IMG/VR virus record: IMGVR_UViG_3300025519_000052 | Location: 1 to 64,000 of that record | DNA length: 64,000 bases | Strand: one strand, 5' to 3' | DNA from: a virus | Lineage: Duplodnaviria > Caudoviricetes | Part shown: positions 16,913-63,009 of the stretch, one piece after another | Layout: each line of letters begins with the position of its first letter | Numbering within the stretch: the stretch's first letter is position 1 | The notes under the pieces: generated by a model | Databases searched by the model: none | The model's input: the letters and a program-made list of their open reading frames with translations, nothing else | Told to the model about the DNA's origin: nothing | Position numbers and translations under genes: made by a program

Positions 16913-17926
16913 TCAGTCATCCACATCTAATATATTTTTCAAACGTTGATTAGCGATACGCACATATTCCGGCTCACGCTCGAATCCGATAAATTTCCGG
17001 TTCAATTTCGCCGCAGCTACCGCTGTAGTTCCGCTTCCCATGAAGCAGTCGAGCACAATCGCGCCTTCGCCTGAACTGTGACGAATGATATTTTCGATTA
17101 ACTCGACAGGTTTCGGCGTTATATGGCCGATTTTCGGGGCTACTTCGTAATTCCAGACGTTATGATGCGTTTTTTGATTGTTGAATACGTATCGCTGTTT
17201 TTCATATTCTTGGCGAAGTGATTCGTATTCTTGGCGAAGTGATTCGTATGGTCTTGTGAAATAACCTGTTGACTGTAGTTTTTTGTAGTTACTATCTGTC
17301 GGTAGATGAAATTGTGTTTTTTCTCTTTTTGAAAAACCGAAGTAATGAACGGTCATTTGATTTCCTAACACGTCTTTTATCGTCTGTTCTGTATAACCAC
17401 TTTTTTCTAGTTCATCGTCTAAGTACTTTTTTATACTCGCAAAGCAATTTTTATCCGCGTTAATTTTACTTAATCCTGTACCATCCTGAAACGTATAAAA
17501 CAAAATATACTCTGCCATTTGTTTATAATTCCGTAATCCATCAACGGCGATACTCCCATCTAAATAACTTTTGAACTTTGCACCTTCAAACCTTTTATTC
17601 CAAACTATAAACTGTTTAAATATAAAACTAGTATTATCGTCTATCGCGTCCATTAGTTTCCGGATTTGTGGAAAGTCGTTATGGAACCAATAAAAAGAAC
17701 CAGTCGGTTTCAAGACACGTTCACATTCGCGAAAAATCGCCGTCATCCACGTTACATAATCATCAACACTTCTCCACTTGTCCCAACGTTTGTCCTTTCC
17801 TATGTTATACGGCGGATCAATCACGATAAGGTCAACGCTATCATCCGGTAACAACCGCATGCCCTCGATAGTGTCCATCTGATATATCCGATTTAGCTCG
17901 AGGCTTCCTATTAATTCTTCCGCCAT
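16913..17926 (-). CDS. Orphan DNA methyltransferase (N4C/N6A, beta class)
   Basis: DPPY motif before DCFMGSGTT; start MAEELIG at 17926 with AAGGAG RBS. Confidence 0.92.
   Translation of the reverse strand: MAEELIGSLELNRIYQMDTIEGMRLLPDDSVDLIVIDPPYNIGKDKRWDKWRSVDDYVTWMTAIFRECERVLKPTGSFYWFHNDFPQIRKLMDAIDDNTSFIFKQFIVWNKRFEGAKFKSYLDGSIAVDGLRNYKQMAEYILFYTFQDGTGLSKINADKNCFASIKKYLDDELEKSGYTEQTIKDVLGNQMTVHYFGFSKREKTQFHLPTDSNYKKLQSTGYFTRPYESLRQEYESLRQEYEKQRYVFNNQKTHHNVWNYEVAPKIGHITPKPVELIENIIRHSSGEGAIVLDCFMGSGTTAVAAAKLNRKFIGFEREPEYVRIANQRLKNILDVDD
17201..17249. repeat. 21-bp tandem repeat (YESLRQE units) inside the methyltransferase
   Basis: TTC(A/G)TATTCTTGGCGAAGTGA x2 plus a partial copy. Confidence 0.9.
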
Positions 17927-17944
17927 CCTATTGCTCCTTACTAG

Positions 17945-17982
17945 AATAAAATTCATATTTTATAAGTGGAATTTTGATTAAA
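17945..17982. repeat. Direct repeat copy B flanking the methyltransferase
   Basis: AATAAAATTCATATTTTATAAGTGGAATTTT. Confidence 0.9.
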
Positions 17983-28402: not shown

Positions 28403-28876
28403 ATGCTGGATATTTGTGTCGAGAAATTAAATACTGGAAGTTGGAAATGGTTTAACCTAGATAAAGTTGGAGCCGACGAAATTCAAGAATGGTTGAATGG
28501 CCAAGAATGGGAAATTGTTGATATTGAAGGTGGAAACACCTTGTATCGTGAATTAAGATATATGCCATTTGAAAAAATTAAAGAATTAAATGAAATGATT
28601 GAAGATGAACAACATTTGCAAATTGCAATTGAGATTTTAAAAAGAGGCATTGTAAATAATCTTGAAGAAGCATTGGAATATGAAAATTACAGATTATATA
28701 ATAATTGTAGTAGTATGGAAGATGTTGCTTATGAAGTTGTTGAAGAAAGTGGAATGTTGAGTGATGTTCCGGATCATTTAAGTAGATATTTCGATTATTC
28801 CTCTTATGGTCGTGATTTAGAAAGTAATGGTACATTCGTTCAATTAGATAATAATACGTACTTAGAAATTTGGTAA
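28403..28876 (+). CDS. ardA: ArdA antirestriction protein (DNA mimic)
   Basis: Acidic; SMEDVAYEVVEE...VPDHLSRYFDYSSYGRDL signature. Confidence 0.88.
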   Translation: MLDICVEKLNTGSWKWFNLDKVGADEIQEWLNGQEWEIVDIEGGNTLYRELRYMPFEKIKELNEMIEDEQHLQIAIEILKRGIVNNLEEALEYENYRLYNNCSSMEDVAYEVVEESGMLSDVPDHLSRYFDYSSYGRDLESNGTFVQLDNNTYLEIW

Positions 28877-30165: not shown

Positions 30166-30819
30166 ATGGAAAAATTGCAAGGCTATGAATTAAACAATAA
30201 AAATTTAATGAGATTTAAAGAAATTACTCATAAAATGATGGAGAAAAAATTTGTATATGATGAAATTAAAGGACATCCAACAAAATATGAATTAATAAAG
30301 CACATTCCTGGCTGGGAAACTCTTGATATTAACCATTCTTCAATTAAACCCTTATTTGATAAATTTGTAATGAAAAGGTCTTATGAACCTGGTTCTGCAG
30401 AATTTTTATTGCCAGAAACCATTAATATGTTACCAGGATGGAATGTAGCTAACTCAACAAAGTCCGAAGATATGAAAGGTCACTACGATATACTAGTAAC
30501 CAGTTTTAAATATAATATTATTGGAACTATCCAGGTATATTCTGGAAATGATTTTGATTATCTAATGCAAAAGATGAAAAATGAAATGTTATCTCAAATT
30601 AAAAAAACAGGCAAGCGAAGTGTCTATATTCAATCTGTTTTTGATGGTGATTTTGCTCATAAGGATGAAAGGGCTTACAAATGGATTGATTATGATGGAA
30701 GTGTCAAAGCAACAGTTTTCTTTCAAACTCCTTATGGACTCGATATTAATACAGCCAAACAAATAGAAAAGAAGATTCTCTTACCATCTATGGTCAATAA
30801 GTTTACGTTTGATTTTTGA
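30166..30819 (+). CDS. Hypothetical protein, possible PD-(D/E)xK-like fold
   Basis: EDMKGHYDILV...IQVY spacing loosely resembles nuclease motifs. Confidence 0.35.
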   Translation: MEKLQGYELNNKNLMRFKEITHKMMEKKFVYDEIKGHPTKYELIKHIPGWETLDINHSSIKPLFDKFVMKRSYEPGSAEFLLPETINMLPGWNVANSTKSEDMKGHYDILVTSFKYNIIGTIQVYSGNDFDYLMQKMKNEMLSQIKKTGKRSVYIQSVFDGDFAHKDERAYKWIDYDGSVKATVFFQTPYGLDINTAKQIEKKILLPSMVNKFTFDF

Positions 30820-30860: not shown

Positions 30861-31670
30861 ATGAATTATGCCGATCAAATATTTAAACAAAATTTAAAAG
30901 AAATTCTTAATGAAGAATTTGAAATAGATAACAGAGCAAAATGGAAAGATGGCACTCAAGTTTACACTAAAAGAATCATTTCTGTTGTAAACAAATATGA
31001 TCTTTCAAAAGAATTTCCAGCTATTACTTTAAGACCTATTGGAATTAAATCAGTATTTAAAGAATTAGATTGGATTTATCGAAAACAGTCCAATAATATT
31101 AATGATTTAGGATTAAAAATTTGGGATTCATGGGCTGATGAAAATGGATCAGTTGGTAAGACTTATGGCTATCAAATTTCAAAGCCTGTATTTGGTTATG
31201 ATAATCAAATTGATTATATCCTGGGAGAAATTCAAAAGAATCCTACTTCTCGAAGACTGGTTGTGGAAATGTGGAATGTCAATGAATTATCTGAAATGAA
31301 TCTACCACCATGTTATCATAATTTGCAATTTTTAATCAAGAACGGAAAGCTTCATTTAATTTTGAAACAACGTTCTTTAGATATGATAACTGCAGGAAAT
31401 TGGGATGTTGTCCTTCATGCCCTGTTAGTTCATATGATTGCCAGACATTGCAATTTAGAAGTTGGTACATTAACTCATATCATTGGTGATATGCACATTT
31501 ATAATAAACATATTGACCAAGCTTATGAAATGTTGAATAGAAAAAGTTTAGAAGCTCCGAAATTTTGGTTAAATCCAGAAGTTAAAAATTTCTATGACTT
31601 TACTGAATCAGATGTGAAATTAACATATAAAGAAAAACATCCACAATTAAAATTTGAAGTAGCAATTTAA
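30861..31670 (+). CDS. thyA: Thymidylate synthase homologue with Asp at the substrate-specificity position (possible dCMP methylase/hydroxymethylase)
   Basis: PPC (Cys151), QRSLD, GDMHIY motifs; residue 182 is Asp where ThyA has Asn. Confidence 0.85.
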   Translation: MNYADQIFKQNLKEILNEEFEIDNRAKWKDGTQVYTKRIISVVNKYDLSKEFPAITLRPIGIKSVFKELDWIYRKQSNNINDLGLKIWDSWADENGSVGKTYGYQISKPVFGYDNQIDYILGEIQKNPTSRRLVVEMWNVNELSEMNLPPCYHNLQFLIKNGKLHLILKQRSLDMITAGNWDVVLHALLVHMIARHCNLEVGTLTHIIGDMHIYNKHIDQAYEMLNRKSLEAPKFWLNPEVKNFYDFTESDVKLTYKEKHPQLKFEVAI

Positions 31671-32707: not shown

Positions 32708-33517
32708 ATGAGTAAAGAATTACTTGGAAGTTTAGAATTAAATCGTGTGTATCAAATGGACTGCTTGGAAGGTATGAAGTTATTGCCTGATAAGAGCATT
32801 GATATGATTCTGTGTGATTTACCATATGGAACAACTGCATGTAAATGGGATACAATAATTCCTTTAGATAAACTTTGGGAGCAATATAAAAGGCTAATCA
32901 AAGACAATGGCGCAATTGTTTTGACATCTTCACAACCTTTTACAACTAAGCTGATAAGTTCAAATATGGAAATGTTTAAATATTGTTGGTATTGGATTAA
33001 AAGTAAACCTAATGGTTGGCAACACGCTAAAAATAAACCAATGACTAAAGTTGAAGAGGTGTGCGTGTTTTCAAAAGCACCTATGGGGCATAAAAGCCAA
33101 CTAGGAGATAGAAGAATGATATACAACCCACAAGGGGTCAAGTCGGCTGGAAAGAAAAAGGTGACAGAGGTTGCTCACGGAAGAATGATGGGCGCAAGAC
33201 CAAATCAAGTAGGTAAAGAATACGAAGCGTTTACAGGTTTTCCACATAATGTATTGGAATATCCTAATATTATTGGAAAACAAGCATTGCATCCAACACA
33301 AAAGCCTGTTAAATTGTTTGAATATCTTATTAAAACTTACACAAACGAAAATGAAATTGTTTTAGATAATTGTTTAGGTTCTGGAACTACCGCAGTCGCT
33401 TGTGAACTAACCAACCGTAAATGGATTGGGTTTGAAACAGAAAAAGAATATATTGAAATTATCAATAAAAGATTAGACCAAATACAACTTGATAATGACT
33501 TAAAAGATTATGAATAA
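32708..33517 (+). CDS. Orphan DNA methyltransferase (N4C/N6A, beta class)
   Basis: CDLPYG, HPTQKP, LDNCLGSGTT; N-terminus similar to the 16913-17926 enzyme. Confidence 0.93.
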   Translation: MSKELLGSLELNRVYQMDCLEGMKLLPDKSIDMILCDLPYGTTACKWDTIIPLDKLWEQYKRLIKDNGAIVLTSSQPFTTKLISSNMEMFKYCWYWIKSKPNGWQHAKNKPMTKVEEVCVFSKAPMGHKSQLGDRRMIYNPQGVKSAGKKKVTEVAHGRMMGARPNQVGKEYEAFTGFPHNVLEYPNIIGKQALHPTQKPVKLFEYLIKTYTNENEIVLDNCLGSGTTAVACELTNRKWIGFETEKEYIEIINKRLDQIQLDNDLKDYE

Positions 33518-34835: not shown

Positions 34836-34879
34836 AAAAATTGAAATTAAACAAATCTTTAAATCGGAGGAATTTTATT

Positions 34880-38701: not shown

Positions 38702-38751
38702 TTGGTAATATTTTCGAAAATCCGGAGTTGTTGGAGGCGAACGATGAATGA
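38701..38751 (+). pseudogene. YopX-family C-terminal remnant
   Basis: Reads IGNIFENPELLEANDE*, the conserved YopX C-terminus, with no upstream gene body. Confidence 0.65.
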
Positions 38752-39284
38752 ACTTACAAAAATTATTTGAAGCACAATTTGAATTAGATGAACGAATTAT
38801 TGAAAAGAAAGGATTACAGGGAGTTGATTTGCTTCCGAACTTAATCATAGCATTGCAAGTTGAACTTGGCAAATGTGCACAAGAATGGAGAGGGTTTAAA
38901 CTTTGGAGTAGTAGACAAGAACCAGTGACTGAAGATTTAAGGGTAGTGGATTTCAAAGGAAATGGAGAAGCAATTATTGAAACATACAACCCACTTCTTG
39001 AACAATATGTCGACTGCTTGAATTTTACTCTATCAATTGGCCTTCATCTCTATAATGAGGTCGTTTCAGCAGACTTGTATGGTTTTAGAAGAACTAACAT
39101 TCTAGATCAATTTAAAACTCTTTTTCATTATTCAACCATGTTATCTGGTGATTATTGTTATTGGCGTTTTTTTGAGTATTTAATTGGTCTCGGTGAGATG
39201 TTTGGTTTTACCTGGGATCAGATTGAACAAGTCTATTTTGAAAAGAATGAGAAAAATCATAGCCTTCTGGAAGATGGATATTGA
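38748..39284 (+). CDS. Dimeric (all-alpha) dUTPase-like protein
   Basis: LQVELGKCAQEWRGFKLWS...LLEQYVDCLNF...YFEKNEKN. Confidence 0.85.
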   Translation: MNLQKLFEAQFELDERIIEKKGLQGVDLLPNLIIALQVELGKCAQEWRGFKLWSSRQEPVTEDLRVVDFKGNGEAIIETYNPLLEQYVDCLNFTLSIGLHLYNEVVSADLYGFRRTNILDQFKTLFHYSTMLSGDYCYWRFFEYLIGLGEMFGFTWDQIEQVYFEKNEKNHSLLEDGY

Positions 39285-39715: not shown

Positions 39716-40222
39716 ATGAGTATCAAAATTAAACGATTGCATTCGGATGCAGTGATTCCGAAATATATACATGCTGGCGATTCAGGGTTTGACCTTGTCG
39801 CTGTGGAAGATATCACTATCGAGCCTGGCGAAACGGTCAAAGTGCCGACAGGGCTTGCGTTCGAGTTGCCGGAAGGCTACGAGTTGCAAATACGACCACT
39901 GTCGGGCATTACGCTAAAAACGAAATTGCGTGTGCAACTCGGCACCGTCGATGCAGGATATAGAGGCGAAATCGGCGTGATTGTTGATAATATTGCCGAG
40001 GATCTGTTCGGAAATGTTGTGCCATATCTCTCGCATATTGACGGTAACGATTATCGGACGGACGGCGAAATCTATCCGAATGAAACGTACATCATCCGAA
40101 AAGGCGACAGAATTGCGCAAGGTGTAATTGCTCCGGTCGCTAAAATGGAGTTTGAAGAAGTAGACAAATTAAGTGATACAGAGTGAAGTAATAAAGGATT
40201 TGGAAGTACAGGTGTAGATTGA
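39716..40222 (+). pseudogene. dut: Trimeric dUTPase with nonsense codon before motif V
   Basis: GFDL, GTVDAGYRGEI and GDRIAQ present; motif II reads PLSG instead of PRSG; TGA at 40184-40186 then in-frame SNKGFGSTGVD*. Confidence 0.85.
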
Positions 40223-40242
40223 AACAAAAAGGCCAAGCTCTT

Positions 40243-41689: not shown

Positions 41690-43237
41690 TTGTTTACGGA
41701 GAATAAAGATTTTTATCCAACACCTCGTGATCTGTTTTATAAATTGATTGATGGTAATCGGTACATCGATGGACGTATTCTCGAACCATCTGCTGGTAAA
41801 GGCGATTTAATTAAATACATTAAAGAGCTAAACCGGAGAGATAGTGTTAGAATAGACGCCATTGAAAAAGATGAACAGTTAGCCAACATATTAATGAGTG
41901 AAGGGTTTCACGTTGTATGGGATGATTTTCTAACATATAAAACATTTAAAGAATACAATTATATCATTATGAATCCACCGTTTTCCAATGGAGTCGATCA
42001 TGTACTAAAAGCCCTTGAACTTGCAGAAAAACAGATAAGCCGTTGTGAAATATATGCAATAATTAATAAAGAAACGCTTGCCAATGCTTACTCGAACAAA
42101 CGCAAGGAACTATTGCGGAAATTGGATGAGTATAAAGCTGAGATTCGATATGTACAAGGAGCATTCACCAATGCAGAACGGCGGACAGATGTTGAAGTAG
42201 CACTCATTCATGTTAAAGTCGAAAAAGCTGATGTAGGTAAGAATATTTACGATAAAATACCGTTCGTAAATGTGACAAATGCAAGTAAGGATGAACTAAG
42301 TACTGCGTTGTCTACCTATGTAAAGCAAAGTGAAATACAAGCGAAAATAGATGACATTGAACGTCTTGTGCTTGAATATGAAACAGCATGTGACCTAGCA
42401 AAAAAGGCATACAAAGCCATTCACGATAAAGAAGTATTTATTCAATATATTAACAAGGTTAATAGTGGAAAAAGTGTATATGACAGAAAGTTGTCATATG
42501 TTGTGTCGAAGCCATTTACAGCAAATGACTTAAATGAGGAACTAGACCGATTGCGACATGGTTATTGGCAGCTAATACTTGATACGGACGATTTTAAGAC
42601 GATGTTAACTAATGACGCCTTGCAGGAGTTAAATAAACGATTGAGTTTGGCAGAAGAAATGGAGATTAATTTGCCAAATATTAAAATGCTCCTTATGGCA
42701 CTGAACTACAACAAGCGTGACATCCTTATTGAAAGTATCGTATCGATTTTTAAAAAGATTACGAAGTATCATATGAACCGGTACAGCACGAATATCCATT
42801 ATTACAATGGCTGGAAAACAAATAATGCATACAAAATCAATAAGAAAATTATTATACCAATTAAGCATTCGTTTGACAGCTGGGACTTTAAAACAGATTA
42901 TGCACTGATTAATTACAATGTCCGCAACTTTATAAATGACATAATCAAAGCGTTTCAGTTGCTTGATCCTACTGTCAAAGGTGAGTTTACGGCGTTAAGC
43001 AACCAAGAATTCGAGTGCGATATACTGCGTTTTAAAATGTTTTTAAATGGCAATGTTCATATTTGGTTTAAAAACGAGCGCTTGCTAAACAAATTGAACT
43101 ACCTTTGTGGAAGTCATTTCAACTGGATTCCGAGCGAGGATGAAATTAAAACGGACAACAGGGCACGTGAGTTTGTTGTTAAGGAATTTGGAACTGAGGC
43201 AGTTACAGATGGATTTATCGAAATGAAGACAAAATAG
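41690..43237 (+). CDS. N6-adenine methyltransferase-like protein with long C-terminal domain (DUF4942-like)
   Basis: DFYPTP, ILEPSAGKG, IIMNPPF motifs. Confidence 0.8.
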   Translation: MFTENKDFYPTPRDLFYKLIDGNRYIDGRILEPSAGKGDLIKYIKELNRRDSVRIDAIEKDEQLANILMSEGFHVVWDDFLTYKTFKEYNYIIMNPPFSNGVDHVLKALELAEKQISRCEIYAIINKETLANAYSNKRKELLRKLDEYKAEIRYVQGAFTNAERRTDVEVALIHVKVEKADVGKNIYDKIPFVNVTNASKDELSTALSTYVKQSEIQAKIDDIERLVLEYETACDLAKKAYKAIHDKEVFIQYINKVNSGKSVYDRKLSYVVSKPFTANDLNEELDRLRHGYWQLILDTDDFKTMLTNDALQELNKRLSLAEEMEINLPNIKMLLMALNYNKRDILIESIVSIFKKITKYHMNRYSTNIHYYNGWKTNNAYKINKKIIIPIKHSFDSWDFKTDYALINYNVRNFINDIIKAFQLLDPTVKGEFTALSNQEFECDILRFKMFLNGNVHIWFKNERLLNKLNYLCGSHFNWIPSEDEIKTDNRAREFVVKEFGTEAVTDGFIEMKTK

Positions 43238-54279: not shown

Positions 54280-54717
54280 ATGACTAGAGAATGCTCAACT
54301 ACTGAACCAAAAATCATTATTTTAGAAGGTGTTGATCGTGTTGGTAAAAGTACTTTGAAAGACACAATTCATAAGTTAACCAATTTCAAACATTTCTTAA
54401 TTGATCGAGGACCAATTTCATACATGGCGTACTGTGAAATTTTTAATAGGCCTATAGATTTGTATTTAAAATATTCAGACATGGAAAAAAGGCTTGCTAA
54501 AATGCCAAATGTTTTGGTGTTTTATTTAACTGCAAATAATGAAACTCTTGTTGATCGTTGTATTGCAGATAATCATGAAATTATTGACTTTGATTTTCAT
54601 AAGCAAGTTTTTGAAAGAATTATAAAAACTTCTCCACTAAAATCGATTACTATCGATACTTCAAATAATTCTTCTGAAAGCATTGTTACAGATTTAATTA
54701 AAGAAGGTGTTTTGTAA
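54280..54717 (+). CDS. Nucleoside monophosphate kinase (dTMP-kinase-like)
   Basis: ILEGVDRVGKST P-loop, IDRG. Confidence 0.85.
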   Translation: MTRECSTTEPKIIILEGVDRVGKSTLKDTIHKLTNFKHFLIDRGPISYMAYCEIFNRPIDLYLKYSDMEKRLAKMPNVLVFYLTANNETLVDRCIADNHEIIDFDFHKQVFERIIKTSPLKSITIDTSNNSSESIVTDLIKEGVL

Positions 54718-54718
54718 T

Positions 54719-55171
54719 ATGAATAAAATTATAATTTATACCGATGGAGGCACTCGTGGGAACGGTAAAGAGTGCAATGTCGGTGGTTTTGGAGCCGTTC
54801 TTCAATATGGTAACCATACTAAAGAAATCTATCAAGGCTTTAGAAATACAACAAACAATCAAATGGAATTAAAAGCTGCAATTGAAGCCTTAAAACAAAT
54901 AAAGAAGTTTAATATTCCTGTTTATGTTTATTCAGACTCTGCTTATCTTGTTAATTGCATGAATCAGAAATGGTATAAAAAATGGATGAACAATGGCTGG
55001 ATAACCTCTAGTAAGAAGACTGTAGAAAATCGTGAGCTCTGGATTGAATTAATTGAATTGGTTCAAAAATTTACGTTTATAACTTTTATAAAGGTTAAAG
55101 GCCATAATGGTAATCCATTAAATGAACGCGCTGATCAATTAGCAAATCTTGCTATGGATTCAGTATCTTAA
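54719..55171 (+). CDS. rnhA: Ribonuclease HI
   Basis: YTDGG, TTNNQMEL, YSDSAY, KVKGH, NERADQLA. Confidence 0.95.
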   Translation: MNKIIIYTDGGTRGNGKECNVGGFGAVLQYGNHTKEIYQGFRNTTNNQMELKAAIEALKQIKKFNIPVYVYSDSAYLVNCMNQKWYKKWMNNGWITSSKKTVENRELWIELIELVQKFTFITFIKVKGHNGNPLNERADQLANLAMDSVS

Positions 55172-55185
55172 TGGAGGAAATTAGT

Positions 55186-55605
55186 ATGAAAAAAATACTT
55201 TCATGGGATGAATACTTTATGGAGCTTGCTCGTGTATCTGCCATGAGAAGTAAAGATCCTCATACACAAGTTGGAGCTTGTATTATTGATTCTGAAAAGC
55301 ATGTTGTTGGTTTAGGATATAACGGCCAGCCCAAAGGGCTTGACAATAAGTTTTCCTGGGATAAAAATGAAAAACATTATTATGTTGTCCATGCCGAATT
55401 AAATGCCATTTTAAACAGTATTAAAAATTTAGATGGTTGCACTATTTATTGTACTCTCTTTCCATGTGCAGAATGTGCTAAAGCAATTGCTCAATCTGGA
55501 ATTATTAAAGTAATTTATCTTTCTGATAAAGATAAAGACAAGGAATACAATAAAGCAGCTAAAAAAATATTTACAGAATGCGGAATTGAATATGAGCAAA
55601 TGTAA
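55186..55605 (+). CDS. dCMP deaminase
   Basis: SKDPHTQVGA, HAELNA, PCAEC. Confidence 0.93.
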   Translation: MKKILSWDEYFMELARVSAMRSKDPHTQVGACIIDSEKHVVGLGYNGQPKGLDNKFSWDKNEKHYYVVHAELNAILNSIKNLDGCTIYCTLFPCAECAKAIAQSGIIKVIYLSDKDKDKEYNKAAKKIFTECGIEYEQM

Positions 55606-55700: not shown

Positions 55701-56249
55701 ATGATTGATATAGCTGAGAAAATCAAAGCCCTTGGTGATGAACAAATTTTATGTCTTGGTGAAATTGTTCGTTACAATAATCATCCAAAAGTCCATCGTG
55801 AAACTGTTGCGGAGCATTCTTTCTATGTAGTTACAACGGTTATAAAAATATGTAAGATGTTCGATCTTCCAGATGAAGTTGAATATAAAGCCCTGAAATT
55901 TGCAACTGTTCATGATATTCCTGAAATGCTTACAGGTGATGTTCCTTTCGATACGAAAGTTGCAAATCCATTATTGGAAGATGTACTGGAACAATATGAA
56001 TTGTGTCAACTAAAAGAAAATATACCGGAGTTTTTGGATTTATATAAAGAATTTTGTGATGCAGCAAAAGAAGAAACAATTCCCTTCCTAGTAACAGATT
56101 TAGCTGATAAAGCTTCTGTGTTGCAATACTCCAATTATGAAATTAAATTAGGAAACCGTACCAAACAAATGCTTGATATTAATGAAAAATCGCAAAAGCG
56201 TGTTGCTGCTTTAATTGAAAAATTGGAATCAAAAATTAAAAGAAATTAA
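55701..56249 (+). CDS. HD-domain phosphohydrolase (YfbR/DatZ-like deoxynucleotidase)
   Basis: RY...ETVAEHSF, HDIPE..TGDVP, LADK. Confidence 0.88.
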   Translation: MIDIAEKIKALGDEQILCLGEIVRYNNHPKVHRETVAEHSFYVVTTVIKICKMFDLPDEVEYKALKFATVHDIPEMLTGDVPFDTKVANPLLEDVLEQYELCQLKENIPEFLDLYKEFCDAAKEETIPFLVTDLADKASVLQYSNYEIKLGNRTKQMLDINEKSQKRVAALIEKLESKIKRN

Positions 56250-56451: not shown

Positions 56452-58924
56452 ATGACAAAGCTTGGCTATTATGGGAATCATAACCACACAGATGCGAGCA
56501 ATTTTCGTTTGCGCGACGCAATCAATAAGCCTGAAGAACTTCTTGAATATGCTTTAAAGATTGGATTATCTGGAATTTCAATTACAGATCATGAAACATT
56601 AGCTTCACATGTAAAAGCTTATAAATATCTTCAAGCAAATAAAGAGAGATTTGGAGATTTTAAGCTCGGTTTTGGTGATGAAATTTATCTAGTAGATAAA
56701 GAAGACATTTTAAATAAGAAAAAACAAAATGAAAAGATTAATTTCTATCACTTTATTTTGGTCGCTAAGAATCAACATGGATATGAAGGACTTAAAAAGA
56801 TTTCCTCAAAAGCTTGGCATAATTCATTTTTCTACCGTGGAATGGAAAGAGTACCAACCTATAAAGATGAATTGATGACAATCATGGAAGAATATCGTGG
56901 AGATATTCTTGCTACAACTGCTTGTATTGGTGGAGAATTACCACAATTATTAATCAAATATCATGATGAACCAACCCGGGAAAACAAGTTGAAAGTTCAT
57001 AATTTTATTGTTTGGCTTAAGGGTGTTTTTGGTGATGATATTTATTTTGAGTTGCAGCCATCTCATAATAGAGACCAAGTTGTTGCCAATGAAATGTTAT
57101 ATAAAGTAGGTAAGGCATACGGAGTTAAGTGTATTGTTGCAACCGATGCTCATTATTTAAATCCTTCATTTGCAAAAACTCATGAAATTTATTTAAAAGC
57201 TTCAGAAGGAGAGCGCGAAGTCGCTGAATTCTATGCTACTACTTATTTAATGTCTCATGATGAATTACTTGAATTTTTTAATCCAACTCTTTTAGAAGAA
57301 CTTGAACAAAATACTCTTGAGATTCGCGAGAAAATCGGTGAGATTACTTTTGAGCAGGAAATTAAAGTTCCAAGAGCGCATATTCCTAAATTTGAATTAA
57401 ATCCATTATTCCAACCATTTTATGATAAATATGAATACATTAAGAAATATTCTGAAAGCAGTTATGATGTTGATCGTTACTATCTTCATTTGATTGCTGA
57501 AGGCATGATTGCAAAGAATCAGGAATTGAATGATACAAACTTAAGTCGCATTAATCTTGAATTAAATGAATTATATCATATCAGCGAAAATCTCGGACAA
57601 CCAATGTCATCTTATTTTGTTCTTACAAAAGATATTGTTGATTTAATGTGGGAAGTTTCATTAGTTGGAGTTTCTCGTGGCTCTGCAAGCTGTTTTTATT
57701 TAAATTATTTATTGGACATTGTTCAAATTAATCCATTGAAATATAACTTACCTCACTGGCGATTTATTTCAAAGGAACGCCCGACTTTACCAGATATTGA
57801 TATTGATACAGAAGGTTCAAAACGGCATGAAATTATTCATATTGCAAAAGAGCATTACGGAGAAGAAAATGTTTTAAACATGGGAACTTTCACAACTGAA
57901 GGTACTCGTTCAGCCGTTTTAACTGCTTGCCGCGGATTAGGAATTGATAATGATATTTCTCAAAATATCGCTAATCTTGTTCCAACTGAAAAAGGTAATA
58001 AACTTTGGTCATTAAGTGAATGTTTCTATGGTGATGAAGCAAAAGGTAAAAAACCAGCAAGAGAATTTGTTAACGAAGTTGCTAAATTTAAAGGATTAAA
58101 AGAAGCAATGCTATCAATTGAAGGATTGATTTCTGGACGCAGTCAACATGCTTCTGGAGTTATTATCTTCCCAGATGGCTATATCAAGCAAAATGCAATG
58201 ATGAAAACTACATCTGGCTTGCCAGTAACTCAATTTGATGCTGTAGATACTGAATATATGGGCGGTTTAAAATTAGACTTCTTATCAATTAACGCTTTGG
58301 ACAGAATCAGAGCTTGTATGGAACTTCTTCTTGAGCATGGAAAAATTGAATGGCAAGGTTCATTAAGAAAAACTTACAATAAATATTTTCATCCTGATGT
58401 ACTTGAAATGGAAGCACCGGAAATGTGGGATATGTTGTTTGAAGGTCATGTTTTAAATGCTTTCCAATTTGAAACTGATGTTGGACAACAAGCATTAAGA
58501 AAAATTAATCCCCGTTCATTTGATGAATTATGTGCTAGTAACTCATTAATGAGATTAAGTGCTTCAGATGGTGAGCAACCAATTGATAAATATGTTCGAT
58601 TTAAGAATGATATTAGCTTGTGGTACAAAGAAATGGATGAAGCTGGTTTAACTAAAGAAGAACAAAAAGTATTAGAAGATTTACTTCTTGATCGATATGG
58701 AATCTGTGATACACAAGAATTTCTTATGCAGATTGCCATGAGTCCAAAAATTTCAGGTTTTACCTTAACACAAGCAAATAAATTTCGTAAGGCTGTTGCT
58801 AAGCAAAACGAACAATTAATTGAAGAACAAAAACAAATATTCTATTCTCAAGGTGAAAAAATCGGTACTCGAAAAGAATTTCTTGATTATGTTTGGAATA
58901 AAGAATTAAAACCTCAATTTGGGT
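56452..58924 (+). CDS. dnaE: DNA polymerase III alpha subunit, exon 1
   Basis: PHP domain HNHT/ITDHE, SRGSA, PDIDID, KLDFL. Confidence 0.95.
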
Positions 58925-59230
58925 GAACATGCACGCCCAAGTAAAACTCGGTGAACCAAGGCCATGGGTGTCATATGTAAATATATCCCAGTTCTCTATA
59001 TAATATTTACATATGGCTAACGGGGAAACCTGTAAGATGGCAATCCCGTGCCAAGCCAATGAATTTTTCATTGGAAGGTGTAGAGACTATTATGTAGGAC
59101 AACTATTGGCACGTTGTTCGAAGCGCCGAGCAATAATGTGTTATTATTTCTTTAAGAAAGATAAATTAAAATGAGTCAACACATTATTGAAGATATAGTC
59201 CACTCCGTATGGAAACATACGGGATAAGTG
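58925..59230 (+). ncRNA. Group I self-splicing intron (306 nt, no homing endonuclease ORF)
   Basis: Splicing restores GGG-TAT-GCA (G-Y-A-F-S-L-P-H); exon ends in U and intron in G; P1 TTGGGT/GCCCAA; core AATCCCGTGCCAAGC, GTAGAGACTA, AAGATATAGTCC; P9 CCGTATG-GAAA-CATACGG. Confidence 0.95.
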
Positions 59231-60564
59231 ATGCATTTTCACTTCCGCACATCTCGGGGTATTCATTAATCTTGATGATTGAGATGAATATTTGTTATCG
59301 ATTTGGTCCAGTTTGGTGGAAGACAGCTTGTTTATCTGTTAATGCAGGATTAATTGGTGAAACTGAGAAAAATACAAAATATGGTGCGGTTGCTAAAGCT
59401 GTTGGAGATATGCATGGTGATGTTTTGAATCCTGATATTAACCTTTCTAATGTAGGATTTACTCCATTGGAAAAGGAAAACAAGATTCTATTTGGTTTAA
59501 AACCTATTGTTGGCTTAGGATCCAATGACATTGCAGCAATTATTGAAAATCGACCATTTAAAGACTTCAAAGACTTTTTTGTTAGAATGATTAAAACCAA
59601 AATTCTTTCTGAAGCAAAAGGCATAACATTAATTAAAGCTGGATGCTTTGACAAAATGAATCCAAACAGAAGAGAACTGATGATTGCTTATGTTCGAGCA
59701 ATTACACCTAAAAAAGAAAAACTTACAATGACACAACTACCTTCTATTATTCAGTTTATAGATAAAAATAAATATTCAAAAGAGCTTGCAGCTTATAAAC
59801 TTAGGAACAAATTATTTGGAAGAAATAAAGTTCCAATGACTAAAGAACTTGAACATGAATTTATGTTATTCTTGAAAGCTTACCCTTTTGAAGTTGAATA
59901 CGATTTTCAAGATGGACAATTGGTTGTTGATCAAAAATCATTCGATAAAGCCTATAAACAAATTATTAAACCATTGAAAGAATGGGTTACTTCTCCAGAA
60001 GCAGCTCAACTGTATAACAAAATTAAAATGCAAGAATTCTGGAAAAAGAATTGTATGGGCACAATTGAAGCATGGGAAATGGACACTCTATTGTTCTATT
60101 CTGACAAACATGAGATTGATTATATGCCTTTAAGCAAGTATTTCAATATATCAAGCTTTAACAAGCTTCCTCGAGAGCCAGTTATAACTGGTTATAAAAG
60201 TTATAGAGGTAGACAAATTCCTCAATATAAGATTGATATAATTGCTGGTACGGTTGTTGATAAGAATAAAAACAAATCTCTTGTTTATGTATTAACGCAG
60301 GACAGTGGCGTTGTTACTGTTCGGTATTCTAAGAGCCAATTCGCCCATTATGATAAAAAAGTGGTTCGTGTAAATGGGAAAAATAAAGAAATACTGGACC
60401 CAAGTTGGTTTGATCGTGGCACCAAACTTATTCTTATAGGATTTAGAAGGCAAGATGAGTTCGTATTAAGAACAACAGGCAGTATATTCAACCATACAAC
60501 TATTAAAATATTGGGGTATAACAGTCATAATGTATACTTTCAACAAGAAAAAGCCGAGGCTTAA
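59231..60564 (+). CDS. dnaE: DNA polymerase III alpha subunit, exon 2
   Basis: AFSLPH, LIKAGCFD, C-terminal OB fold. Confidence 0.93.
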
Positions 60565-60803: not shown

Positions 60804-61178
60804 ATGGACAAATTACAATTTTTATTAGATTCACAAGAAAAATTTCAAAAACGCCTTGGACAAGATTTTCCACTTATGAATGAAAAAGAAAAATCGGAAT
60901 TTCTTCATGTTCATGGTTATTTCTTAATTGAGGAAGTTGCTGAAATGCTGCGTGAAACTCCATTTCATAAACCATGGAAACAATATAACTGGGATGAAGA
61001 AAAAACTTTAAGCCAGGAAGAACTTCAAAAAGATGAAGCAATTGATGCTTTACATTTTTTAATTAATATCTTTTTAGCACTCGGCATGGATTCTGAAGAA
61101 GTTATTGAACGATACAAAGAAAAAAACAAACTCAATTATCGTCGTCAAGAAGATTCAAGTCTAGGTTATATAAAATGA
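60804..61178 (+). CDS. All-alpha NTP pyrophosphatase (dimeric dUTPase/dCTPase/MazG-like)
   Basis: LIEEVAE...HKPWK...DEAIDALHF...YKEKNKLNYRRQ. Confidence 0.85.
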   Translation: MDKLQFLLDSQEKFQKRLGQDFPLMNEKEKSEFLHVHGYFLIEEVAEMLRETPFHKPWKQYNWDEEKTLSQEELQKDEAIDALHFLINIFLALGMDSEEVIERYKEKNKLNYRRQEDSSLGYIK

Positions 61179-62457: not shown

Positions 62458-63009
62458 ATGATTTATGTCTTATTAGGTCCAACTTGTTCTGGTAAGACTA
62501 CAACTCTAAAGCAACTTGTTGATTTTGGTTATGAGCCTATCATAACTTATACAACTCGGCCAAAAAGAAAAAATGAAGTAGATGGAAAAGATTATTATTT
62601 TATTTCAGAAAGACAATTTAATCACTTAGACGAATTCAATTTATTGATAGCAAAAAATACATTTAAAAATGCTTTTGGAACAGAATGGCATTATGCTATC
62701 AATCGGCAAGATATTGATTTAACTAAAGATTTGGTAGTAATTACTGATCCTAAAGGTTATCGAGATTTAGTTAAAACTTTTGGAAAAGAAAACGTAACAA
62801 GTATTTACTTGAATACAAACTATGAAATTAGACTTATTCGTGGATTGAACAGACAAGACCAAGTAAATGAGCTATATAGAAGATTGCTTTCTGATGAAGA
62901 AGTTTTTAGAGGGTTTGAGAAAGAAGCTGATTATATAATTACTGAGACTACAAAAGTTGGTGTTCTGAATAAAGTTCTAAAAATAATTTATGGAGGTAAG
63001 CAATCTTGA
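62458..63009 (+). CDS. Guanylate-kinase-like nucleotide kinase
   Basis: GPTCSGKTT, TTRPKRKNEVDGKDYYFIS. Confidence 0.9.
   Translation: MIYVLLGPTCSGKTTTLKQLVDFGYEPIITYTTRPKRKNEVDGKDYYFISERQFNHLDEFNLLIAKNTFKNAFGTEWHYAINRQDIDLTKDLVVITDPKGYRDLVKTFGKENVTSIYLNTNYEIRLIRGLNRQDQVNELYRRLLSDEEVFRGFEKEADYIITETTKVGVLNKVLKIIYGGKQS

Follow-up and report, generated by a model that had tools for sequence, protein, structure and literature searches.

Which pyrimidine nucleotide does the thymidylate synthase homologue of an AT-rich, SPbeta-like phage methylate? The question is raised by a ThyA-family gene (P0001) in the IMG/VR virus record IMGVR_UViG_3300025519_000052 (Duplodnaviria; Caudoviricetes). The window, that is the whole stretch of DNA analysed, comprises the first 64 kb of this 84,361-bp record, which is rated 100% complete. 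A preliminary description of the window had pointed out that the gene encodes Asp at the column of Escherichia coli Asn177, the residue that selects deoxyuridine monophosphate (dUMP), and had suggested that the enzyme acts on deoxycytidine monophosphate (dCMP). Our analysis leads to the view that the gene probably encodes a dCMP 5-methyltransferase, which would work together with a nucleoside triphosphate (NTP) pyrophosphatase, a dihydrofolate reductase (DHFR) and a deaminase of the phage. The gene and the residues concerned are:

30861..31670, + strand: ThyA-family gene, 269 amino acids (aa), predicted dCMP C5-methyltransferase (PF00303, AlphaFold (AF2) model)
31161..31163, + strand: Thr101, convergent replacement of an Ala beside the catalytic Tyr102 (E. 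coli Tyr94; column comparison)
31311..31313, + strand: catalytic Cys151 (E. coli Cys146), an invariant column (alignments)
31404..31406, + strand: Asp182, codon GAT, in the pyrimidine-specificity column of E. coli Asn177 (HMMER alignment to 1b02)
31416..31418, + strand: His186, codon CAT, in the column of E. coli Tyr181, one helical turn past Asp182 (alignment, AF2 helix)

The frame is uninterrupted and the sole long reading frame at the locus. Its product matches the Pfam family PF00303 (Thymidylat_synt) over the full length (6.8e-74, profile positions 2-266 of 266) and was assigned to PHROG 160 in a PHROG search. The best solved relative is Bacillus subtilis ThyA (PDB 1b02; 2.4e-60 by HMMER, 39% identity). 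An AF2 model calculated with 49 homologues as input (predicted local distance difference test, pLDDT, 95.7; predicted template modelling score, pTM, 0.93) superposes on 1b02 with a template modelling (TM) score of 0.95. The full-length match and the fold place the protein in the ThyA superfamily. Its catalytic and folate residues are in place: R25, E68, W88, W91, Y102, R131/R132, C151, R171, S172, D174, H212 and Y214, all in invariant columns, are kept, as is the C-terminus ending in ...EVAI. Of the catalytic and folate residues, only the equivalent of Asn177 is altered.

Asn177 of ThyA reads the O4/N3-H edge of uracil. In the phage gene, the codons at 31371-31418, CGT TCT TTA GAT ATG ATA ACT GCA GGA AAT TGG GAT GTT GTC CTT CAT, translate as R171, S, L and D174, followed by MITAGNW, D182, VVL and H186. 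HMMER aligns D182 with the specificity Asn of 1b02 and H186 with its conserved Tyr, and Cys151 and Asp182 are 31 residues apart, exactly as Cys146 and Asn177 in E. coli. Codon reading and alignment thus agree with the position assigned to the Asp before. In the AF2 model both Asp182 and His186 lie on helix 181-196. Since His186 follows one turn after Asp182, their side chains are neighbours, and His186 most likely positions or buffers the Asp182 carboxylate. Four non-identical sequences, taken from JGI, Logan and ENA assemblies, make up the 90%-identity cluster of the protein. The Asp...His motif is present in each of them (4/4), and the cluster representative differs from P0001 at 4/269 residues, none of them in the active site. 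A sequencing error at the GAT codon, a possibility that the preliminary description had raised, is excluded by these variants from separate assemblies.

Asp at this column is already known from phage enzymes that methylate dCMP. The Xp12 enzyme and 5/7 other Asp177-type phage enzymes yielded 5-methyldeoxycytidine (5-methyl-dC) in E. coli DNA when T4 gp1 was co-expressed (bioRxiv 10.1101/2024.12.05.627091). In an earlier paper of that group (PMC8670742), the residues of phage synthases with the strongest association with cytosine-modified contigs were those at 177 and 147; N177D and N229D mutants, which methylate dCMP, are cited there. In the Xp12-like phages (genus Pamexvirus) all C is replaced by 5-methylcytosine (5mC), and the genes for DHFR, dCMP deaminase (cd), the ThyA homologue and a nucleotide pyrophosphohydrolase lie side by side (PMC9206674). 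The record of PaMx74 shows the same adjacent module. Its enzyme reads RSSDVFVGLPYDVMGH, with Asp at 177 and His at 181 (PYDVMGH). Both residues recur in 120/120 of the best homologues of the PaMx74 enzyme (53-96% identical, Xp12 included; PYD..GH), and a Pro follows the catalytic Cys (E. coli 147) in 116/120 enzymes of the Xp12/PaMx74 family. This invariance in a dCMP-methylase family supports the suggestion that the Asp marks a switch to dCMP.

The phage protein bears the signature of the Xp12-type dCMP 5-methyltransferase (EC 2.1.1.54), Asp177 plus His181, in the form NWDVVLH. With the Xp12/Pamexvirus systems (PaMx74, AXL1, DLP4) it further shares the ThyA fold, the long C-terminus, the lack of a second synthase, and a DHFR, a dCMP-family deaminase and an NTP pyrophosphatase encoded in the same genome. 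However, it does not descend from the Xp12/PaMx74 clade, being only ~25% identical to the PaMx74 enzyme and nested among Asn-type synthases resembling B. subtilis ThyA. Because it lies outside that clade and its nearest relatives are of the Asn type, the Asp/His signature is convergent. The systems also differ in that the partner genes are adjacent in Pamexvirus, whereas here none adjoins the synthase and they are scattered over 45 kb. Moreover, those phages have 67% G+C and infect Proteobacteria, while this genome has 32% (32.3%) G+C and resembles phages of Bacillota.

How often the exchange has occurred was followed in the best 120 homologues among 5.8 billion proteins, together with P0001 and the enzyme of Geobacillus virus E3. 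Among these 122 sequences the specificity column holds Asn in 115 and Asp in 7. A further 88 relatives (80 from GTDB genomes, 8 from IMG/VR contigs) have Asn without exception (88/88), and over the Asn-type relatives examined the residue is Asn in 221/221. The phage enzyme is nested within the B. subtilis ThyA subfamily among synthases of the Asn type at 65-72% identity, the nearest being 72% identical; the nearest named phage enzyme, gp68 of Geobacillus virus E3, is 57% identical, of the Asn type and encoded adjacent to a DHFR. B. subtilis ThyA and the phage phi3T-type synthase (1b02) have the same subfamily architecture and likewise a residue other than His after the catalytic Cys, but differ in carrying Asn and Tyr (motif NPFNVFQY) and in using dUMP.

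A phylogeny of Asp-type homologues, proposed earlier as a check, was obtained as a maximum-likelihood tree of 143 sequences. It contains four gains of Asp, at least three of which are forced by well-supported branches. Lineage A is the cluster of this phage (stem 0.43). Lineage B consists of two Clostridiales bacteria (P0098 and the enzyme of genome G003; stem 0.75) nested in Asn-type Lachnospiraceae/Eubacterium ThyA. Lineage C is a group of phages (P0016, P0050, P0081; stem 0.47), and lineage D a single phage (P0073; tip 1.14). With a median tip length of 0.17 in this tree, each switch to Asp lies on an accelerated branch. The switches were accompanied by further changes around the pocket. 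The Tyr at column 186, conserved in 98% of Asn-type relatives, was replaced by His in lineages A and B and by Phe in D. Thr has taken the place of Ala101, which adjoins the catalytic Tyr102, in A, B and D, and none of the four lineages keeps Asn179 (the residue is Gly, Gly, Leu/Met and Trp, respectively). At position 173 (E. coli Cys168) the first three lineages have a hydrophobic or small residue (Leu, Ala or Cys). The same triple, Gly179...Asp182...His186, was reached by A and B, which are only 48% identical to each other. These convergent changes look like a pyrimidine pocket re-aimed several times by adaptation, rather than like drift or decay. The replacement of the Tyr had been taken for an adaptation rather than an error, and its convergent appearance together with Asp here and in a bacterial lineage bears this out. 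Lineages C and D are SPbeta-like phages (L008:10001-10648 and L010:5452-6285; motifs NYDVVEY and NFDVVMF), one of which keeps Tyr four residues after the Asp while the other has Phe.

The bacterial counterpart was found in genomes named Clostridiales bacterium GWD2_32_59 and GWD2_32_19:

L005-L007 (10001-10831) and L046 (4977-5807, - strand), genomes G001 and G003: Clostridiales Asp/His ThyA, motif AGNWDVVQH

The gene of P0098 is part of a bacterial chromosome, where the genes around it encode MutS, ClpP, aspartokinase, Pta and AckA. Between pta and ackA runs a series of genes for NTPase_1, a dCMP-family deaminase, the Asp/His synthase, DHFR and MazG, in which the deaminase, synthase and DHFR genes overlap. 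In both genomes (~2.0 Mb each, metagenome bins of unestablished completeness) the Asp/His enzyme is the sole ThyA. Neither ThyX nor a credible thymidine kinase was found in them, an absence that in bins is not proof. In G001 the operon deaminase is the only gene of the dCMP-deaminase type, as the other two PF00383 matches look like TadA and Cdd. In the Asn-type sister genomes ThyA is accompanied by DHFR alone, and a deaminase gene is missing next to them. When the genome contigs were scanned with the bacterial Asp-type protein, all that came up was Lachnospiraceae ThyA of the Asn type. The Clostridiales enzyme is a separate convergent origin from a Lachnospiraceae-type ThyA. The deoxythymidine monophosphate (dTMP) of these bacteria must come through it, either as 5-methyl-dCMP that is then deaminated or by a retained activity on dUMP; what the case shows is only that Asp/His enzymes can support a cellular thymidylate supply. 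In G003, NTPase_1 (THEP1-like) and the deaminase form one open frame of 370 aa (L046:5804-6916, - strand), and the deaminase has HGE instead of HAE. Between the two species the deaminases are 41% identical, and DHFR, MazG and NTPase 81-89%.

Which other genes could serve such an enzyme in the phage? The whole 84,361-bp genome was found to contain no second ThyA-family gene, no ThyX and no C5 DNA methyltransferase, so the earlier statement that this is the only synthase-like gene of the window holds for the complete record. The genome is unusually rich in nucleotide-metabolism genes, and those closest to the question are:

38748..39284, + strand: all-alpha NTP pyrophosphatase of the dimeric dUTPase_2 family, 178 aa (PF08761 1.4e-26, phrog_173), candidate dCTPase or house-cleaning enzyme of the module
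55171..55605, + strand: dCMP-deaminase-family gene, 144 aa, P0123 (phrog_174 6.4e-49, PF00383 3.9e-27), predicted partner converting 5-methyl-dC nucleotide to deoxythymidine (dT) nucleotide and/or dCMP to dUMP
73793-74269 of the genome, outside the window: DHFR
39716..40186, + strand: trimeric dUTPase homologue that has lost the Arg of motif II and that of motif V
54280..54717, + strand: short thymidylate-kinase-like (Tmk-like) deoxynucleoside monophosphate kinase, 145 aa (phrog_761 3.6e-15; PF02223 6e-6, below cut-off), candidate kinase for dTMP or 5-methyl-dCMP
60804..61178, + strand: second, shorter dUTPase_2/MazG-like NTP pyrophosphatase, 124 aa

The deaminase is present as previously described and has the GYNG, HAE and PCxxC motifs. 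The Tmk-like kinase has a P-loop and a DR motif. The trimeric dUTPase had been called inactivated. Indeed, in the region 39716-40225 motif II has become PLSG, with Leu for the Arg of PRSG, and the codon expected for the motif V Arg is a TGA, after which SNKGFGSTG continues in frame.

These genes were compared with a related IMG/VR record (G062; 82.5 kb, 98% complete, 32.5% G+C), whose synthase is of the Asn type and 65% identical to P0001. The two genomes are syntenic for genes encoding a sigma factor, the synthase, YorF, PhoH, deoxyribosyltransferase, Sak4, DnaB, primase and RecJ; the Tmk-like kinase, RNase H, an HD protein, DnaE, the short MazG-like protein and guanylate kinase; and RusA, thymidine kinase, topoisomerase, an amidoligase and gamma-glutamyl cyclotransferase (GGCT). 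G062 has no counterpart of the dCMP deaminase, the DHFR or the 178-aa NTP pyrophosphatase. Counterparts of the trimeric dUTPase, of ribonucleotide reductase (RNR), of the upstream open reading frame (ORF) at 30166-30819 and of the methyltransferase-like genes at 32708-33517 and 41690-43237 are absent from it as well (a third such gene, 16913-17956, lies outside this comparison). The three partners of the Xp12 module, deaminase, DHFR and NTP pyrophosphatase, are exactly those missing from G062 and present here. This contrast agrees with the earlier assignment of the dCMP deaminase to the same scheme as the synthase. Among the shared proteins, the Tmk-like kinases are 47% identical while its neighbours reach 66-70%; the corresponding values are 49% for the 124-aa dUTPase_2/MazG-like protein and 81% for guanylate kinase.

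We propose that P0001 is a reductive C5-methyltransferase of the ThyA fold whose substrate was switched from dUMP to dCMP. It would convert dCMP and 5,10-methylene-tetrahydrofolate to 5-methyl-dCMP and dihydrofolate, with Asp182, in place of Asn, accepting the N4-amino group of cytosine and protonating N3. The all-alpha NTP pyrophosphatase would either form dCMP from dCTP or keep the pool clean, DHFR would recycle dihydrofolate, and 5-methyl-dC nucleotides would be deaminated to dT nucleotides by the dCMP-family deaminase. A dUMP-dependent synthase would thereby not be needed by the phage. Overall this would amount to the Xp12/Pamexvirus scheme, reached convergently from a phage synthase resembling B. 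subtilis ThyA.

Several observations weigh against this proposal. The deaminase lies 24 kb from the synthase, in contrast to most published cases, in which the two are within 3 kb of each other (bioRxiv 10.1101/2024.12.05.627091). It resembles an ordinary dCMP deaminase of the ComEB/T4 type and could therefore simply make dUMP. In the two other phage lineages with Asp no deaminase was seen within the 24-30 kb visible, which are partial views. The residue after the catalytic Cys is Tyr152 and not the Pro of the Xp12 type. Avoidance of GATC, CATG and GATATC as well as G+C content (32.3% vs 32.5%) are alike in G062 (GATC z = -5.0 in this phage vs -7.0 in G062; GATATC -4.4 vs -3.3), so that neither gives a hint of blanket protection by 5mC. 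The sole-ThyA status of the Asp/His enzyme in the Clostridiales also fits a residual activity on dUMP.

The strongest rival explanation is that P0001 is still a conventional dUMP-dependent synthase (EC 2.1.1.45) and that the deaminase, DHFR, Tmk-like kinase and thymidine kinase are an ordinary set for the supply of deoxythymidine triphosphate to an AT-rich genome. Asp182 would then be tolerated, either protonated or compensated by His186 and local changes. Indeed, dCMP deaminase, thymidylate synthase, DHFR and kinases also make up the textbook dTMP pathway; the two Clostridiales, with neither ThyX nor thymidine kinase, need dTMP and have the Asp/His enzyme as sole ThyA; and the protein passes the equivalog model TIGR03284 (179 bits vs a cut-off of 108). 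It stays below the cut-off of the closest equivalog, however (NF002495, 248 vs 327), and instead of the Asn of the canonical enzyme it has Asp182. The Asn is invariant in the 221 relatives, and wherever Asp occurs the branch is long and accelerated and shows convergent changes in the pocket. Asp and His are both invariant in the family of Xp12, a verified dCMP methylase, and the N177D and N229D mutants switch to dCMP. We therefore regard a conventional synthase as unlikely.

If dCMP is the substrate, is it methylated or hydroxymethylated? The preliminary description had allowed either product. A dCMP hydroxymethylase of the T4 gp42 kind (EC 2.1.2.8), providing 5-hydroxymethyl-dCMP for a hypermodified genome, likewise has Asp at the specificity column and dCMP as its substrate. 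This Asp, which had been claimed for the T4 enzyme, is seen in the alignment of P0001 with the T4-type gp42 of Aeromonas phage Aes007. The amidoligase and GGCT pair could in principle decorate such a base. In that alignment, however, gp42 has Ser at +4 instead of His and ends ~50 residues earlier, thus missing the C-terminal segment that closes over the folate, while P0001 is of full length and keeps this segment along with Trp88/Trp91, as reductive synthases do. T4 gp42 differs further in releasing tetrahydrofolate and in having a separate Asn-type synthase alongside. DHFR is needed only if dihydrofolate is produced, and a hydroxymethylase would have no need of the one encoded here. The amidoligase/GGCT pair is present in the Asn-type relative G062 too and is therefore not tied to an Asp-type synthase, and PHROG scans turned up no glycosyltransferase or DNA-kinase genes. 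The whole C-terminus and the DHFR make methylation much more likely than hydroxymethylation, so that of the two products the methyl form is favoured and the hydroxymethyl form is very unlikely.

That the gene is decaying under relaxed selection, like the trimeric dUTPase, with dTMP coming from the host, is the most improbable of the explanations: the stem branch is long, the best-conserved segment deviates from that of the nearest relatives at 8/16 positions and the same genome holds the damaged dUTPase, but the frame is intact, no other catalytic residue has changed, AF2 models the protein with very high confidence, only ~4/269 residues, none of them in the active site, vary among the four cluster members, and the same changes occur in the functional, verified family of Xp12.

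What would become of the 5-methyl-dC? Given methylation of dCMP, 5-methyl-dC nucleotides would almost certainly feed dT synthesis, because no other synthase is encoded. Whether 5mC would also be present in virion DNA or the flow would go to dT only appears about evenly balanced. Presence in the DNA is favoured by the precedent of Xp12, by the gained possible dCTPase and by the strongly diverged Tmk-like kinase. On the other side, or neutral, are the bacterial module, which can work without a 5mC genome, the ordinary and far-off deaminase, and the unchanged site avoidance and G+C content relative to G062. The preliminary description had offered modification of the genome and a route to dT as alternatives. 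Each of the two routes stands as an option; the either/or does not, as in the published model for Xp12 5-methyl-dC both goes into DNA and is deaminated to dT (bioRxiv 10.1101/2024.12.05.627091). Deaminases encoded beside Asp177-type enzymes can be 5mC-selective according to the same study. The Asp177-type phage ThyA proteins and 5mC-selective deaminases known from MetaGPA (PMC8670742; bioRxiv 10.1101/2024.12.05.627091) follow the same rule, Asp177 for dCMP, and a dUMP bypass through deaminated 5-methyl-dC nucleotides has been proposed for them as well. They differ in that their deaminase is <3 kb away and that the characterised mSCD-B5 acts on triphosphates, whereas the deaminase found here is distant and has the look of a canonical dCMP deaminase.

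A wider interpretation, which is possible although we lean against it, is that an Asp/His ThyA with deaminase, DHFR and NTP pyrophosphatase forms a portable, dUMP-free thymidylate pathway (dCTP/dCMP to 5-methyl-dCMP to dTMP) that evolved repeatedly out of ordinary synthases. Here and in the two Clostridiales it would make dT while the cytosine of the DNA stays ordinary, and the trimeric dUTPase would have been lost because dUMP was no longer required.

Both ideas of the preliminary description had already been published for phages (eLife 2021; bioRxiv 2024.12.05.627091), namely that Asp-type ThyA homologues are dCMP methylases and that a deaminase provides a bypass to dT. New are the lineage, an AT-rich SPbeta-like phage whose enzyme arose convergently within the ThyA subfamily of B. 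subtilis, the His181 that goes with Asp177 (lineages A and B and the Xp12 family), the further convergent residues listed above, and partner genes that are dispersed instead of clustered. If the proposed methylation of dCMP is correct, the gene would represent an independent and recent origin of a dCMP methylase from a phage synthase of the B. subtilis type, with Asn-type relatives at 65-72% identity for comparison. It would provide a short, testable list of exchanges that suffice for re-aiming the enzyme: Asn177 to Asp, Tyr181 to His, Ala to Thr beside Tyr94, and replacement of the Asn that stands three positions before residue 177. The prediction of 5mC genomes would gain a sharper rule, in which Asp, His and a full C-terminus together indicate a methylase. 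The Xp12-type scheme would extend from high-G+C phages infecting Proteobacteria to AT-rich SPbeta-like phages, and the Clostridiales would offer a Bacillota case of a cellular dCMP-first thymidylate route. The pair of synthase and deaminase may interest developers of 5mC-selective reagents.

The remaining genome resembles SPbeta in its replication module, with YorF/YorH-like genes, DnaB, primase, RecJ and a DnaE-type polymerase. Further nucleotide genes encode a nucleoside 2-deoxyribosyltransferase and class I RNR with NrdI, and a thymidine kinase is encoded outside the 64-kb window. Additional features are:

62458..63009, + strand: guanylate-kinase-family gene (PF00625 1.2e-15)
55701-56249: HD-domain protein, YfbR-like 5'-deoxynucleotidase by Pfam, named 'dATP triphosphohydrolase' (DatZ-like) in PHROG
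30166-30819: 217-aa ORFan directly upstream of the synthase, with no PHROG or Pfam match

The PHROG name of the HD protein brought up a 2-aminoadenine (Z) genome, which was rejected since PurZ is absent (for the 342-aa ORF at 34841 no Pfam match was found) and the HD protein is YfbR-like. A nuclease directed against C-containing DNA was considered for the ORFan and discarded, as there is no family match and nothing assignable. An atlas search gave only weak leads to restriction-enzyme families (0.89), the set of 5.8 billion proteins contains no homologue other than a 99%-identical copy, and a single-sequence AF2 model has a pLDDT of 39. Megablast revealed no near-identical phage records.

The amidoligase (PF12224) and GGCT (PF06094) genes, a pair of unassigned role, are located just past the DHFR (genome 74464-75912; L004:10964-12412). 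Two N6/N4 DNA methyltransferases, a methyltransferase-like DUF4942 protein and an ArdA anti-restriction protein are encoded at 16913-17956 (-), 32708-33517 (+), 41690-43237 (+) and 28403-28876 (+). The DnaE-type polymerase is represented by two ORFs, 56452-58926 and 59209-60564, with ~280 bp between them. In G062 the two halves abut (50246/50242), which fits an insertion, such as an intron, that occurred only in this phage.

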